Origin: a virus
Taxonomy: Duplodnaviria > Heunggongvirae > Uroviricota > Caudoviricetes
Strand: one strand, 5' to 3'
Length of the DNA: 4,987 nt
Virus record (IMG/VR): IMGVR_UViG_2713896783_000037
Part shown: in pieces, positions 1 to 4,987 of the stretch
Layout of the letters: every line of letters starts with the position of its first letter
Numbering within the stretch: the first letter of the stretch is position 1
Notes under the pieces: generated by a model
What the model saw: only the letters and a program-made list of their open reading frames with translations
Told to the model about the DNA's origin: nothing
The model's database searches: none
Translations under genes and position numbers: made by a program

Positions 1-45
1 ATAAAACCGGGTGATGCAAAAGTAGCCGTTTGATTCACAAGGCCA

Positions 46-74
46 TTGACGCATCGCCCGGTTAGTTTTAACCT
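46..74 (+). promoter_or_regulatory. Candidate sigma70 promoter for the tRNA gene (TTGACG-17 bp-TAACCT)
   Basis: TTGACG at 46-51 and TAACCT at 69-74 with a 17-bp spacer, about 40 bp upstream of the mature tRNA 5' end. The -10 hexamer is weak; this is a pattern match only. Confidence 0.25.
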
Positions 75-114
75 TGTCCACCGTGATTCACGTTCGTGAA
101 CATGTCCTTTCAGG

Positions 115-190
115 GCCGATATAGCTCAGTTGGTAGAGCAGCGCATTCGTAATGCGAAGGTCGTAGGTTCGACTCCTATTATCGGCACCA
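115..190 (+). tRNA. thrW: tRNA-Thr, anticodon CGU
   Basis: 76-nt cloverleaf: acceptor stem GCCGATA/TATCGGC, D-loop AGCTCAGTTGGTAGAGC, anticodon loop containing CGT, T-arm GGTTCGACTCC, encoded 3' CCA. Matches my recollection of enterobacterial thrW. Confidence 0.9.
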
Positions 191-204
191 TTTAAATCAA
201 TAAG

Positions 205-1179
205 TTACACATCATTAGTACCTTCCTTATTTTTTGACTGGGACAAATTTGGGACCGATGGGTTCAGGATCGAGTCTATTTGCCGTGCGTGTTCGGTAAG
301 GTGATTAGGTGCAAGGTGAGCATATCGACGAACCATTTCGATAGACTCCCAGCCTCCCATTTCCTGTAACACTGACAACGGGACTCCGGCTTGAACCAGC
401 CAACTTGCCCAGGTGTGTCTCAAGTCGTGAAATCTGAAATCATCAATACCAGCCCGTCTCAGCGCCGCTTTCCAGGCTGTGTTTGCGTCATACCGCATCT
501 TCCTTACTGTTGGCGCTTTCGTTCCGTCTGGTTTGGTACAGCTTTCCTTGTACACAAATACCCAACGGTGATGATTACCGATTTGTTTTTTCAATACGCG
601 ACATGCAGTATCATTCAGCGCAACGCCAATTGCGCGGTTTGATTTACTCTCTTCCGGGTTTATCCATGCCACCCGGCGCTGCATATCTATTTGTTGCCAT
701 TCAAGGTTGATGATGTTCGAGCGTCTTAAGCCTGTTGCCAGTGCAAATTCAACAACAGACTTTAATGGCTCCGGACATTCATCAATCAGCCTTTGTGCTT
801 CATGGGGCTCCAGCCAGCGGAGCCGTTTATTCTTTGGTTGAGGCACTTTAATAATTGGTGCCTTATCGAGCATTTTCCATTCACGCTCTGCGGCTCTTAG
901 CAGGGCCTTTATAAATGAAAGATGCGTAGCCTTCGTTGCAACGGACGCTGGTTTTGGCGTGTATTCTGGAACAGGTTTCCCTTTTTTTCTGCATGCTTCT
1001 GCCCTGAGTTTCCAGTTTTCCTCATGACGCCGGTTCGTCATTTTCTGCATTGCTGAATAAATTTTTGATTCAGTAATGTCTCTTAGTTGCATTCCTGCGA
1101 AATGTTGAAGCCAGAATCCGATCTGCTTTCCATTGAGCCTGTTTCTCTGCGCGACGTTCGCGGCGGCGTGTTTGTGCAT
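205..1179 (-). CDS. int: Tyrosine recombinase (phage integrase), 5'-truncated; catalytic domain intact
   Basis: Catalytic signature residues are present: R in ATGLRRSN, H-x-x-R in [11 protein letters not shown] in VRRYAHL. The stop is 15 bp from the tRNA 3' end. Integrase-derived sequence begins only at about 1122; the first 19 codons of the ORF ([19 protein letters not shown]) are lambda N coding DNA read in the +1 frame, and an in-frame stop lies at 1201-1203. The N-terminal (arm-binding) region of a full-length integrase of this kind therefore appears to be missing. Confidence 0.8.
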
Positions 1180-1183
1180 CCAT
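1124..1183 (-). pseudogene. N: Antiterminator N, 5' fragment (first 20 codons only)
   Basis: ATG at 1183-1181 is preceded by AGGAGAATCCAG and encodes [20 protein letters not shown], the arginine-rich boxB-binding N-terminus of lambda N. After codon 20 the sequence switches to integrase DNA and the N frame runs on as [17 protein letters not shown] to a stop at 1070. Confidence 0.8.
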
Positions 1184-1340
1184 CTGGATTCTCCTGTTAG
1201 TTAGCTTTGGTTGTGTGTGGGAGTCGTAGTCCTGAACGAAAACACCCCGCAATGGCACATTGGCTGCTAATCCGGATTCGCACTTCCGGCCAATGCTTCG
1301 TTTCGTATCACACACACCAAAGCCTTCTGCTTTGAATGCT

Positions 1341-1371
1341 GCCCTTCTTCAGGGCTTAATTTTTAAGAGCA
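1341..1371 (-). promoter_or_regulatory. nutL (boxA plus boxB hairpin)
   Basis: On the minus strand: TGCTCTTAA (boxA-like) followed by GCCCTGAAGAAGGGC (boxB stem-loop, identical to lambda nutL boxB as I recall it). Lies in the pL leader upstream of the N start. Confidence 0.7.
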
Positions 1372-1404
1372 TCACCTTCATGGTGGTTAGTGCGTCCTGC
1401 TGAT

Positions 1405-1473
1405 GTGCTTAGTATCACCGCTAGTGGTATTTGTGTCAACACCGCCAGAGATAATTTATCACCGCAGATGGTT
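1405..1473 (-). promoter_or_regulatory. pL promoter with operators OL1, OL2, OL3
   Basis: Minus-strand -35 TTGACA (plus 1434-1439) and -10 GATACT (plus 1411-1416). Three 17-bp cI/Cro operator sites: OL1 1413-1429 TATCACCGCTAGTGGTA, OL2 1437-1453 CAACACCGCCAGAGATA, OL3 1457-1473 TATCACCGCAGATGGTT. Confidence 0.85.
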
Positions 1474-1554
1474 ATCTGTATGTTTTTTATATAGATTTAT
1501 TTTTTGCAGGGTTGTGTGGCTTGGGAGGTGATCGAGAGATCAGAATTGCGTTGT

Positions 1555-1944
1555 TTAGTGAGTTGCACCTATTAATTTTAAAATAAATACAATTGGTGTT
1601 TTTCGAGTTTTTCTTAACTCTTCATGCAGCTCCGTTCTCAGAATATATGATTTTTCGAGTTTGAAATTCTTGCGACCAGGCGTCTTATTGCCAGGCTCAG
1701 GAAGTGGAAGGCGTGTTTGAATGTCGAGTGGTGGACAGTCATAGAAGTAAATTCTATAAAGCTCAAGCGGTTCCCTACGTTCTTGTGATTGATGTTTTCC
1801 ATTAAGATGGGAAAGAACCATTGACCATATTACTTTCATTATGCATTGCGCAGTCAGTTCATGCTCGGCGAAGTGTTTACGATGCGTAGCATGAACACGC
1901 TGCATGAAAAAACCCGCATCAATTAAAATTGCTGCTTTCTTCAT
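1555..1944 (-). CDS. Hypothetical protein (129 aa, basic) in the rexA/rexB position of the immunity region
   Basis: The only ORF in the six-frame track between OL and cI. ATG at 1944-1942 with a weak GGGA Shine-Dalgarno. AT-rich relative to flanking lambda-like DNA. No family recognised; the N-terminal MKKAAILIDAGFF resembles the first strand-Asp motif of PIN/NYN-type folds, but this is a weak impression only. The last ~16 codons lie in DNA homologous to lambda's non-coding region right of OL. Confidence 0.5.
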   Translation of the reverse strand: MKKAAILIDAGFFMQRVHATHRKHFAEHELTAQCIMKVIWSMVLSHLNGKHQSQERREPLELYRIYFYDCPPLDIQTRLPLPEPGNKTPGRKNFKLEKSYILRTELHEELRKTRKTPIVFILKLIGATH

Positions 1945-1953
1945 AAGAGTCCC

Positions 1954-2014
1954 AAAAAAATAGCCCAGAGCCGTTATGCAGATATTAACAATTGTCTGCG
2001 AACGGGGCTGGGCT
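1954..2014 (-). terminator. Intrinsic terminator immediately downstream of cI
   Basis: On the minus strand: AGCCCAGCCCCGTT...AACGGCTCTGGGCT imperfect GC-rich stem (7+5 bp with a 2-nt internal mismatch, inner GCAGA/TCTGC pairing) followed by ATTTTTTT. Begins 57 nt after the cI stop and ends 9 nt before the ORF129 ATG. Confidence 0.6.
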
Positions 2015-2024
2015 TGGTTTAATT

Positions 2025-2054
2025 AATCTATGCCAAGTTGACTGTGCCGTCAAC
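2025..2054 (-). promoter_or_regulatory. Candidate promoter (TTGACG-17-TAGATT) overlapped by the inverted repeat GTTGAC-N6-GTCAAC
   Basis: Minus-strand -35 TTGACG (plus 2048-2053) and -10 TAGATT (plus 2025-2030) with a 17-bp spacer. A perfect 6-bp inverted repeat at plus 2037-2054 overlaps the -35. Pattern only. Confidence 0.25.
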
Positions 2055-2071
2055 ATAAAACTTACTTCCTA

Positions 2072-2788
<717 letters not shown>

Positions 2789-2796
2789 TTAAATCT

Positions 2797-2860
2797 ATCA
2801 CCGCAAGGGATAAATATCTAACACCGCGCGTGTTGACTACTTTACCTCTGGCGGTGATAA
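2797..2860. promoter_or_regulatory. Right operator OR3-OR2-OR1 with divergent promoters PRM (leftward) and PR (rightward)
   Basis: OR3 2797-2813 TATCACCGCAAGGGATA, OR2 2819-2835 TAACACCGCGCGTGTTG, OR1 2843-2859 TACCTCTGGCGGTGATA. PR -35 TTGACT 2832-2837 and -10 GATAAT 2855-2860. cro Shine-Dalgarno TAAGGAGG at 2873-2880. Confidence 0.92.
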
Positions 2861-2876
2861 TGGTTGCATGTACTAA

Positions 2877-3086
<210 letters not shown>

Positions 3087-3093
3087 ATAACCC

Positions 3094-3125
3094 CGCTCTT
3101 ACACATTCCAGCCCTGAAAAAGGGC
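3094..3125 (+). promoter_or_regulatory. nutR (boxA CGCTCTTACACATTCCA plus boxB GCCCTGAAAAAGGGC), followed by the tR1 region
   Basis: boxA at 3094-3110, boxB hairpin at 3111-3125. The following 3126-3200 contains the palindromes ACACC-TAT-GGTGT and GTATGCA-TTTATT-TGCATAC, typical of the lambda tR1 rho-dependent terminator region. Confidence 0.8.
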
Positions 3126-3204
3126 ATCCAATTAAACCACACCTATGGTGTATGCATTTATTTGCATACATTCAATCAATTGTTATCTAAGGAAATACTT
3201 ACAT

Positions 3205-3498
3205 ATGGTTCGTGCAAACAAACGCAACGAGGCTCTACGAATCGAGAGTGCGTTGCTTAACAAAATCGCAATGCTTGGAACTGAGAAGACAGCGGAAGCT
3301 GTGGGAGTTGATAAGTCGCAGATCAGCAGGTGGAAGAGAGACTGGATTCCAAAGTTCTCAATGCTGCTTGCTGTTCTTGAATGGGGGGTCGTTGACGACG
3401 ACATGGCTCGATTGGCGCGACAAGTTGCTGCGATTCTCACCAATAAAAAACGCCCGGCGGCAACCGAGCGTTCTGAACAAATCCAGATGGAGTTCTGA
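3205..3498 (+). CDS. cII: Transcriptional activator CII
   Basis: 97-aa product MVRANKRNEALRIESALLNK...ERSEQIQMEF, identical to lambda CII as I recall it. True start is the ATG at 3205 (RBS TAAGGAAATACTTACAT), not the upstream ATG at 3145 used by the ORF track. Confidence 0.95.
   Translation: MVRANKRNEALRIESALLNKIAMLGTEKTAEAVGVDKSQISRWKRDWIPKFSMLLAVLEWGVVDDDMARLARQVAAILTNKKRPAATERSEQIQMEF
3214..3227 (-). promoter_or_regulatory. CII-binding site of PRE (TTGC-N6-TTGC)
   Basis: Plus GCAAACAAACGCAA is the reverse complement of TTGCGTTTGTTTGC, the direct-repeat CII recognition motif flanking the -35 of the leftward establishment promoter, embedded in the first codons of cII as in lambda. Confidence 0.6.
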
Positions 3499-3520
3499 GG
3501 TCATTACTGGATCTATCAAC
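3442..3520 (-). ncRNA. oop: oop antisense RNA (overlaps the cII 3' end)
   Basis: Minus strand reads GTTGATAGATCCAGTAATGACCTCAGAACTCCATCTGGATTTGTTCAGAACGCTCGGTTGCCGCCGGGCGTTTTTTATT. This matches my recollection of lambda oop, including the terminal GC hairpin and U-run. A pO-like promoter (CATAAT -10) lies just upstream within the start of O. Confidence 0.7.
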
Positions 3521-3530
3521 AGGAGTCATT

Positions 3531-4329
3531 ATGACAAATACAGCAAAAATACTCAACTTCGGCAGAGGTAACTTTGCCGGACAGGAGCGTAATGTGGCAG
3601 ATCTCGATGATGGTTACGCCAGACTATCAAATATGCTGCTTGAGGCTTATTCGGGCGCAGATCTGACCAAGCGACAGTTTAAAGTGCTGCTTGCCATTCT
3701 GCGTAAAACCTATGGNNNNNNNNNNNNNNNNNNNNNNNNNNNNNNNNNNNNNNNNNNNNNNNNNNATGAATATTATCAAGCAGCAAGGCGGCATGTTTGG
3801 ACCAAATAAAAACATCTCAGAATGGTGTATCCCTCAAAACGAGGGAAAATCCCCTAAAACGAGGGATAAAACATCCCTCAAATTGGGGGATTGCTATCCC
3901 TCAAATTGGGGGATTGCTATCCCTCAAAACAGGGGGACACAAAAGACACTATTACAAAAGAAAAAAGAAANNNNNNNNNNNNNNNNNNNNNNNNNNNNNN
4001 NNNNNNNNNNNNNNNNNNNNGCAGAGTGGATGTTTGACATGGTGAAGACCATCGCGCCATCAGCCAGAAAACCGAATTTTGCTGGGTGGGCTAACGATAT
4101 CCGCCTGATGCGTGAACGTGACGGACGTAACCACCGCGATATGTGTGTGCTTTTCCGCTGGGCCTGCCAGGACAACTTCTGGTCCGGTAACGTGCTGAGT
4201 CCGGCCAAACTCCGCGACAAGTGGACCCAGCTCGAAATCAACCGTAACAAGCAACAGGCAGGCNTGANAGCCAGCAAACCAAAACTCGACCTGACAAACA
4301 CNGACTGGATTTACGGGGTGGATNTATGA
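3531..4329 (+). CDS. O: Replication initiator O (lambda-type), interrupted by assembly gaps
   Basis: N-terminus MTNTAKILNFGRGNFAGQERNVADLDDGYARLSNMLLEAYSGADLTKRQFKVLLAILRKTYG. Middle segment MNIIKQQGGMFGPNKNISEWCIPQNEGKSPKTRDKTSLKLGDCYPS. C-terminal domain AEWMFDMVKTIAPSARKPNFAGWANDIRLMRERDGRNHRDMCVLFRWACQDNFWSGNVLSPAKLRDKW...DWIYGVD, with the ATGA stop/start overlap onto the P start. Two 50-N runs (3716-3765, 3971-4020), isolated Ns at 4264, 4268, 4302 and 4324, and a 23-bp duplication make frame continuity undeterminable. Confidence 0.85.
3716..3765. other. Assembly gap (50 N) inside gene O
   Basis: Run of 50 N. The corresponding lambda segment is about 99 bp by my recollection, so the gap length looks arbitrary. 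Confidence 0.95.
3829..3937 (+). repeat. Origin iterons (O-binding sites) inside gene O; five copies, followed by an A-rich tract
   Basis: Five inverted-repeat iterons of the form ATCCCTCAAA...GGGGGAT, starting at 3829, 3849, 3873, 3896 and 3919 (spacing 20-24 bp), then CAAAAGACACTATTACAAAAGAAAAAAGAAA running into the gap. Lambda has four as I recall; the third here is present twice. Confidence 0.85.
3874..3919 (+). repeat. Perfect 23-bp tandem duplication (TCCCTCAAATTGGGGGATTGCTA x2) within the origin iterons
   Basis: 3874-3896 and 3897-3919 are identical. 23 is not a multiple of 3, so the O reading frame is shifted after this point relative to lambda (KLGDCYPS then NWGIAIPQNRGTQKTLLQKKKE instead of KQGDTKDTITKEKRK). 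Confidence 0.8.
3971..4020. other. Assembly gap (50 N) inside gene O, just after the origin A-rich tract
   Basis: Run of 50 N. The corresponding lambda segment is about 124 bp by my recollection, so the gap length looks arbitrary. Confidence 0.95.
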
Positions 4330-4637
4330 AAAACATCGCCGCACAGATGGTTAACTTTGACCGTGAGCAGATGCGTCGGATCGCCAACATCGATAACCAG
4401 GACATGACGATATCGGTCTGGGTCTTTCCTGATACTGATATTTCAGATGTATCGCGTGAGTTAATTGCGGCAATTAAACAGGGGTATCTAACAGTAAAAG
4501 CCGCCGGGGTATGGGCGGGGGGCATTGAAACACCTTCGGTGGAAACTCCATCGGAAGGCTCTAAATTTTTTGGTTTTGATATGGATAACGAATTCATCAG
4601 TGGTTTTGATGTAGGGGCATGGGGAGTATTACTCTGA
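4326..4637 (+). CDS. Chimeric ORF: first 21 codons of replication protein P fused to 82 codons of unrelated coding sequence
   Basis: [21 protein letters not shown] matches the lambda P N-terminus (nucleotide identity through 4389). From 4390 the sequence is unrelated ([45 protein letters not shown]...[11 protein letters not shown]). The frame stays open for 82 codons and ends in a TGATG stop/start overlap with the next ORF, suggesting the 3' end of a real gene. Confidence 0.55.
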
Positions 4638-4987
4638 TGGCGAAAAATGACTTTAAAGCGTTTGCAACTGATCGAAATGCCAATGTTATGTCGCAGGAGG
4701 AATGGGAAGCGTTGCCTGCGCTTATATCCGGATTTACAGCAGGGAAAGCATCCAGTGCGCAAGTCAATAAGGTTATTCGGCAGGCCAGCTTTATTGCTGC
4801 AGCTCTGGCCCAGTTTGTAAGTGATAAAACGCAACGGGATGTGCTTGATAATGGTGATCTGCCCGGTTTTGTTGAATTGCTGGGATCGGGGTTTGCTGTT
4901 GAATACCTGAGCCGCAAGAATCCGTTTGGCGATATCAAATCGGACGGCACGGTGAAAACGGCTCTTCAAAACCTTGGTTTGGGAGAA
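4637..4987 (+). CDS. Hypothetical protein, 5' part only (runs off window); possibly a phage tail-fibre N-terminal region
   Basis: ATG at 4637 overlaps the upstream stop (TGATG). Product [82 protein letters not shown]... has protein-like composition, whereas the opposite-strand ORF looks like antisense junk. The tail-fibre assignment is a pattern-level impression only. Confidence 0.55.

Follow-up and report, generated by a model that had tools for sequence, protein, structure and literature searches.

About 200 complete genomes of E. coli O157:H7 match the window (the whole stretch of 4,987 nt that was analysed) with 99.9% identity over 98% of its length. Judged by its sequence, the stretch is the defective lambda-like prophage Sp1 (CP-933H in EDL933), which adjoins thrW in E. 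coli O157:H7. In Sakai, the counterpart is annotated as "prophage Sp1, lambda-like phage" (ECs_0271-ECs_0285), with pseudogene labels on O (ECs_0277), P (ECs_0279) and int. The genes that we found are, in this order, tRNA-Thr(CGU), a truncated integrase gene, an N remnant, cI, cro, cII, O, a 64-nt piece of P and a tail-fibre gene. This arrangement (thrW - int' - N' - cI - cro - cII - O - P' - tail fibre), combined with the deletion joint between P' and the late region, is that of Sp1/CP-933H. A single substitution separates the stretch from Sakai within 1-3715, and all other readable pieces are exact substrings of the Sakai sequence. Locus and sequence are those of Sp1 in Sakai and of CP-933H in EDL933 with no substantive difference, the stretch being a gapped draft of that element. 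Apart from the tRNA, an Rfam scan retrieved no RNA. The following features are of importance here:

2072-2785, minus strand: cI, part of the context driving O transcription
2886-3086: cro, part of the same context
3205-3498: cII, likewise part of the context driving O transcription
3531-3715, plus strand: 5' part of O, from its ATG at 3531 to the first N run, without differences from lambda O
3716-3765: first N run (50 N), placeholder for 100 bp, nt 186-285 of Sakai O
3829-3846, plus strand: iteron 1, ATCCCTCAAAACGAGGGA, exact match to lambda ITN1
3849-3866, plus strand: iteron 2, ATCCCCTAAAACGAGGGA, exact match to lambda ITN2
3873-3895, plus strand: first copy of the 23-bp unit, consisting of iteron 3 (3873-3890, exact match to ITN3) and the spacer TTGCT
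3896-3918, plus strand: second copy of the 23-bp unit, consisting of the extra iteron 3' (3896-3913, exact match to ITN3) and the spacer
3919-3936, plus strand: iteron 4, ATCCCTCAAAACAGGGGG, exact match to lambda ITN4
3937-3970, plus strand: first section of the A+T-rich origin tract, which continues beneath the second N run (complete in Sakai)
3971-4020: second N run (50 N), placeholder for 124 bp, nt 491-614 of Sakai O
4021-4329, plus strand: 3' part of O, out of frame, with single Ns at 4264, 4268, 4302 and 4324
4326-4389, plus strand: P remnant, 64 nt (21 codons) that align colinearly with lambda P

The immunity region (2072-3498) is lambda-like, with an intact cI of 237 aa in addition to cro and cII, and with a sequence at ~2837-2853 which we take to be the lambda operator OR1. 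The integrase ORF (205-1315, minus strand), which is annotated as a pseudogene or as lacking its N-terminus, is overlapped by an 81-aa ORF with the N36 motif of the N protein (Pfam PF11438, 36.8 bits). This overlap indicates that a deletion fused int to N and eliminated the recombination and early-left genes by which the two are separated in lambda. Beside cI, an ORF of 129 aa (1555-1944, minus strand) has no Pfam match and is termed hypothetical in the records; a PIN-domain protein is named in this region in some genomes. The sole substitution by which the stretch differs from Sakai and UTME-4 lies in this ORF (T instead of C at 1793), and the gene is truncated by IS1203 in one UK sublineage (Z1812, 9000). 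At the other end of the window, two alternative products are annotated for the tail-fibre gene (WP_001096963.1 and WP_001096948.1), a DNA invertase gene (pinE) is located ~2 kb further on, and position 4987 (6602 in our locus L008) is the exact point where the colinearity of Z1812 and 9000 stops. Taken together, this makes it probable that the end of the stretch coincides with the boundary of an invertible tail-fibre segment.

Within O, the 23-bp unit ATCCCTCAAATTGGGGGATTGCT, composed of iteron 3 and its spacer, is present in two copies (3873-3895 and 3896-3918), which are followed by ATCCCTCAAA. Tandem Repeats Finder described this as an array of period 23 at 3873-3928 (2.4 copies, 100% matches, no indels), and in our own scan it was the sole perfect tandem duplication with a period of 10-59 within the stretch. 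The first 10 bases of iteron 4 (3919-3928) are those of iteron 3 (ATCCCTCAAA), at an offset of exactly 23 bp. Because of this identical opening, the duplication can be placed in 11 equivalent registers (starts 3873 to 3883). An earlier note on this DNA had reported a duplication of iteron 3 plus spacer at 3874-3919, which is one of the valid registers, and the duplication itself is borne out. The second unit copy (3896-3918) is an insertion relative to both lambda and the four-iteron Sp1 alleles introduced below. Alignment with lambda O yielded a clean 23-base insertion with no further indel in the readable parts, and located the iterons within the initiator gene, with the A+T-rich tract after them. 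Exact 18-bp matches to the imperfectly palindromic lambda iterons start at 3829, 3849, 3873, 3896 and 3919, which upholds the count of five O-binding repeats, against four in lambda, given in the same note. The iterons ITN1-4 of ori-lambda (NC_001416, 39034-39118; extent of the origin taken from PMC3349717) are base-for-base identical to iterons 1-4 of Sp1; their spacing and their location inside O agree as well, as does the A+T-rich tract downstream. What sets Sp1 apart from ori-lambda is the extra ITN3 with its spacer (23 bp), which frameshifts O, the truncated P, and its state as a non-replicating chromosomal remnant.

Since 23 equals 7 x 3 + 2, the insertion shifts the O frame by +2, as the earlier note had stated. 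Sakai O comprises 923 bp (the 900 bp of lambda plus 23) and is identical to that of EDL933, the 23 bp being the sole indel relative to lambda. In Sakai, the shifted frame encodes 141 native and 61 out-of-frame residues and terminates at codon 203 with a TGA at nt 607-609 of O, a position which falls into the 124 bp masked by the second N run of the stretch. Restoration of the frame within this gap had been considered possible, but neither Sakai nor EDL933 contains a compensating indel. The isolate from which the stretch derives, in which the stop lies under 50 N, probably lacks such an indel too, as we infer from the identical flanks. PGAP applies the label "frameshifted" to O in EDL933, 9000 and SS17. 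The Sakai product includes the Pfam domain Phage_rep_O (PF04492) at its full profile length (residues 22-115, 124.9 bits). The frame, which in lambda O (299 aa) continues unbroken through the linker into the C-terminal half, is lost after residue 141, so that the Sakai product is devoid of this half. In lambda, it is the C-terminal half of O that recruits and binds P. A disabling mutation, one of the options offered in the earlier note, is thus supported by an O frame that is not restored, in a prophage whose P is truncated as well.

P ends at a joint to unrelated late-region DNA at 4389/4390. The P remnant reads on across this joint as a fusion ORF of 103 aa (4326-4637), the foreign part of which gave a sub-threshold match to Pfam DUF2612 (E = 6e-4, 20.3 bits vs. 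a cutoff of 23.5 bits); PGAP names the second piece of the fusion region a replication-protein fragment. With P cut after 21 codons, the replication module is dead irrespective of O, and the combination of truncated P, damaged int and missing xis means that Sp1 can neither replicate nor excise. This conforms to the survey of Sakai prophages by Asadulghani et al. 2009 (PMC2669165), where the repressor and antirepressor of Sp1 were found to be conserved, integration and replication were scored as defective and excision as absent. In that study, mitomycin C led to neither amplification nor a circular form of Sp1, the residual Sp1 early genes were clearly induced according to microarray data, and the Stx1 prophage Sp15 did amplify in the same strain. 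The O lesion is one of several in Sp1, and the defect of the prophage is already on record.

The duplication lies on an island of 205 bp (3766-3970) between the two 50-N runs at 3716-3765 and 3971-4020, the flanking gaps to which the earlier note had drawn attention. With 100 bp and 124 bp at the corresponding sites in Sakai, the N runs are placeholders of arbitrary size. The island recurs letter for letter in the Sakai sequence, and the 3' part of O (4021-4329) has Sp1-specific bases at the readable sites that distinguish Sp1 from Sp15 or lambda. Two of the four single Ns in this part (4302 and 4324) coincide with sites that differ between the O genes of Sp1 and Sp15, the pattern that a mixture of reads from the O genes of several prophages would produce.

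To trace the duplication, we used a 37-mer covering the junction (3881-3917), which four-iteron DNA cannot seed in megablast, the longest shared words being 25 and 22 bases. A similarity search with the 205-bp island had been dropped, as its top matches were all four-iteron loci aligned in two pieces and the two states were inseparable. The junction 37-mer was present in 191 of 5,426 complete E. coli genomes, always with 100% identity, including Sakai and EDL933; EC4115, TW14359 and Xuzhou21 carry it as well. Among 100 listed matches (the 40 best and 60 evenly spread), all genomes with a serotype are O157 or O157:H7. In NZ_CP089272.1 (M1300706001A) the junction occurs in two places, the Sp1 locus having the usual two unit copies. 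An exact-pattern scan detected the junction in seven IMG/VR contigs, six of which have the Sp1 markers located inside the contig. The 37-mer was absent from 50,697 phage records, and exact-pattern scans of the JGI metagenomes and of the GTDB species representatives did not find it either; the duplication therefore appears to be confined to the chromosomal remnant of O157:H7.

One of the drafts deserves separate mention. In IMGVR_UViG_2541047164_000016 (L010; 12213-13112, minus strand), the duplication is located between Sp15-type flanks, and bases of Sp1 and Sp15 type alternate; this contig also has an additional A close to the start of O. Gene conversion of the duplication into the Stx1 prophage was considered on account of L010 and rejected as the likely reading in view of the alternating bases and of an arrangement that occurs in no complete genome. 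The latter makes it probable that L010 is a chimeric draft assembly of paralogous O genes. Suspicion of repeat-driven misassembly is justified for this region in general, but wrong for the duplication itself.

Not all Sp1 copies have five iterons. To sort the complete genomes, we used as query a four-iteron Sp1 sequence extending across the joint at P', which is specific to Sp1. Twelve complete O157:H7 genomes, among them SS52, JEONG-1266, Rafaela_II, 272, Z1812 and UTME-4, match this query at 100% in one piece of 771 bp. A further four-iteron match at 99.6% was obtained for 7386WT, bringing the total to ~13. The remaining Sp1 genomes among the matches listed span 794 bp, except for M1300706002 with 793 bp, and the duplication is present in ~94% of the ~204 complete genomes that bear Sp1. 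Two of the records have peculiarities. 7386WT combines four iterons with three unique substitutions for which neither Sp15 nor lambda offers a match; as no donor could be identified for these, a sequencing error is possible. M1300706002 has the duplication and a 1-bp homopolymer deletion, which is probably a sequencing error since cII is frameshifted in this record too.

O of UTME-4 equals Sakai O minus the 23 bp and is otherwise identical. It differs from lambda O at 15 sites, all of them synonymous, so the encoded protein is identical to lambda O. The lack of decay downstream of the frameshift implies that the O lesion is young. Z1812 (four iterons) and 9000 (five iterons) are identical over 6.6 kb, including a shared IS1203 insertion, apart from the 23 bp. 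Likewise, SS52 (four iterons) and SS17 (five iterons), which we aligned with MAFFT, have an IS1203 insertion in common; the 23 bp and a small number of substitutions distinguish them. This IS1203 insertion is a different one from that of Z1812/9000 and has the opposite orientation. Both insertions lie between the int remnant and cI (~1800-3100 in L008/L009 and ~8400-9700 in L019/L020), in different O157:H7 sublineages, each of which includes both iteron states, and they may serve as lineage markers. Sakai and EDL933 have the duplication and no IS1203 in Sp1. The simplest reading of this distribution would be that the duplication is older than both IS1203 insertions and was lost at least twice. 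Alternatively, the repeat could have been collapsed in some of the four-iteron assemblies when these were polished against paralogous O genes. O55:H7 CB9615 was considered as a direct precursor and rejected, its O allele differing from that of Sp1 at 21 sites; the thrW prophage of CB9615 is a different, full-length lambdoid that has four iterons and in which O and P are intact.

The comparison of iteron numbers in related prophages, proposed as a check in the earlier note, gave six for Sp15, four for CB9615 and four for the ~13 Sp1 genomes described above, as opposed to the 191 genomes with the duplication. Sp15 of Sakai has intact lambda-type O and P, and its O of 312 residues includes an extra 39 bp, an in-frame duplication of the iteron 1-2 pair. 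The same six-iteron expansion, with 13 extra residues in O, is known from the origins of 933W and P27 (PMC7466680). The Stx phages 933W and P27, Sp15 and Sp1 have in common that iterons were gained by tandem duplication in the same origin and the same gene. However, in the Stx phages and Sp15 the insert is 39 bp, in frame, involves iterons 1-2 and leaves a working origin, whereas in Sp1 it is 23 bp, out of frame and involves iteron 3. Sp1 thus has neither an insert divisible by three nor the 13 additional amino acids of the Stx-type expanded origin. On these sequences, expansion of the array has a functional precedent, but solely for gains divisible by three, Sp1 being the out-of-frame counterpart. 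Iterons also acted as substrates of repeat rearrangement in the classical ori- alleles r93, r96, r99 and ti12. These are in-frame deletions between iterons, in contrast to the duplication in Sp1. Another parallel is provided by the RK- mutants, survivors of the induction of trapped lambda fragments (PMC3349717), which, like Sp1, have lesions in O or the iterons abolishing initiation in a fragment that cannot be excised. The RK- mutants were obtained in the laboratory, whereas the duplication in Sp1 arose in nature and has spread in the lineage of a pathogen.

We consider it very likely that O of Sp1 is a null allele in a dead replication module, and that the fifth iteron is a by-product of the lesion rather than an improvement of the origin. 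As to its formation, iterons 3 and 4 most likely mispaired via their identical 10-bp starts, by replication slippage or unequal exchange. Mispairing at a distance of 23 bp would have duplicated exactly one 23-bp period, a mechanism to which the microhomology points. Along with the fifth iteron came the O frameshift, the product of which keeps the N-terminal domain and drops the C-terminal half. The duplication is recent and appears to be open to loss again.

The null allele is compatible with a further proposal, which addresses why the lesion spread: the O frameshift may have been favoured because firing of a trapped SOS-inducible cI-pR-O unit would be lethal (replicative killing). Such killing by trapped lambda fragments, and survivors with initiation-blocking mutations, are documented (PMC3349717). 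Mitomycin C induces the early genes of Sp1 (PMC2669165), co-resident prophages could provide a lambda-type P in trans (Sakai Sp15 has intact O and P), and the duplication is found in ~94% of the complete genomes with Sp1. On the other hand, truncation of P alone may already block firing, ~13 genomes tolerate an intact O at this locus, and descent from a single ancestor explains the high frequency equally well. We regard selection for inactivation as plausible but unproven, and on balance as rather unlikely.

Much less probable in our view is that the lesion has a function in interference. In this case, the SOS-induced N-terminal fragment of O, the five chromosomal iterons, or both, would compete with full-length O and damp the replication of Sp15 or of incoming phages with a lambda replicon. 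The truncated O is transcribed after SOS induction, its product does retain the complete Phage_rep_O domain, the iterons and N-terminal O of Sp15 are near-identical to those of Sp1, and plasmids carrying oop and iterons silence lambda-type replication in trans, with a requirement for ITN3-4 (PMC3349717). However, the published inhibition depends on multicopy plasmids, whereas Sp1 is present in a single copy, and Sp15 still amplifies in Sakai after treatment with mitomycin C (PMC2669165). Similarly little weight can be given to the idea that the 23-bp repeat is a reversible switch by which Sp1, instead of being inert, modulates induction of the Stx1 prophage. If this were true, the five-iteron state would yield just the DNA-binding N-terminal part of O after an SOS response and could damp replication of the Stx1 phage. 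Loss of one copy would restore an O identical to that of lambda, which, together with P from a resident prophage such as Sp15, could fire the trapped origin or act on that of Sp15.

It is hardly credible that the extra copy is false, i.e. that reads were joined incorrectly across the iterons of paralogous O genes, the short-read artefact feared in the earlier note. Enclosure of the 205-bp island by two N runs, two of four single Ns at sites differing between Sp1 and Sp15, and the Sp15/Sp1 mosaic around the duplication in the draft contig L010, which is unmatched in complete genomes, would fit such an error. For the lineage, an artefact is contradicted by the 191 complete genomes that share this junction at this locus, the references Sakai and EDL933 among them, and by the exact match of the island to Sakai. 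Finally, the working variant with five iterons, an altered O linker and a frame restored downstream, which the earlier note had also entertained and for which lambdoids with more iterons (Sp15 and Stx phages with six, by an in-frame gain of 39 bp) would be natural precedents, has next to no chance of being correct, as the O frame of the complete genomes contradicts it, with no compensating indel in Sakai or EDL933 and a stop after 61 shifted codons, and as P is truncated and Sp1 does not amplify after induction (PMC2669165).

The analysis settles that the repeat seen in the draft is real and that O has become a pseudogene, in line with the preferred reading of a null O allele in a dead module; the annotations of Sakai and EDL933 and the 2009 survey of the Sakai prophages already record this state of O. 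In our literature searches, no paper describing the 23-bp duplication was found. The polymorphism of four and five iterons, with an apparently repeated loss that restores a lambda-identical O, is the sole modestly new point, and it is a potential, if minor, typing marker within O157:H7. The region also calls for caution in assembly and polishing where several copies of a prophage coexist. Should a truncated or restored O act on the Stx1 prophage, this would have a bearing on the induction of the toxin phage. For the evolution of lambdoid origins, the locus illustrates the constraint imposed by origin repeats that are embedded in a coding sequence: a gain of 39 bp leads to working six-iteron origins, whereas a gain of 23 bp kills the initiator.
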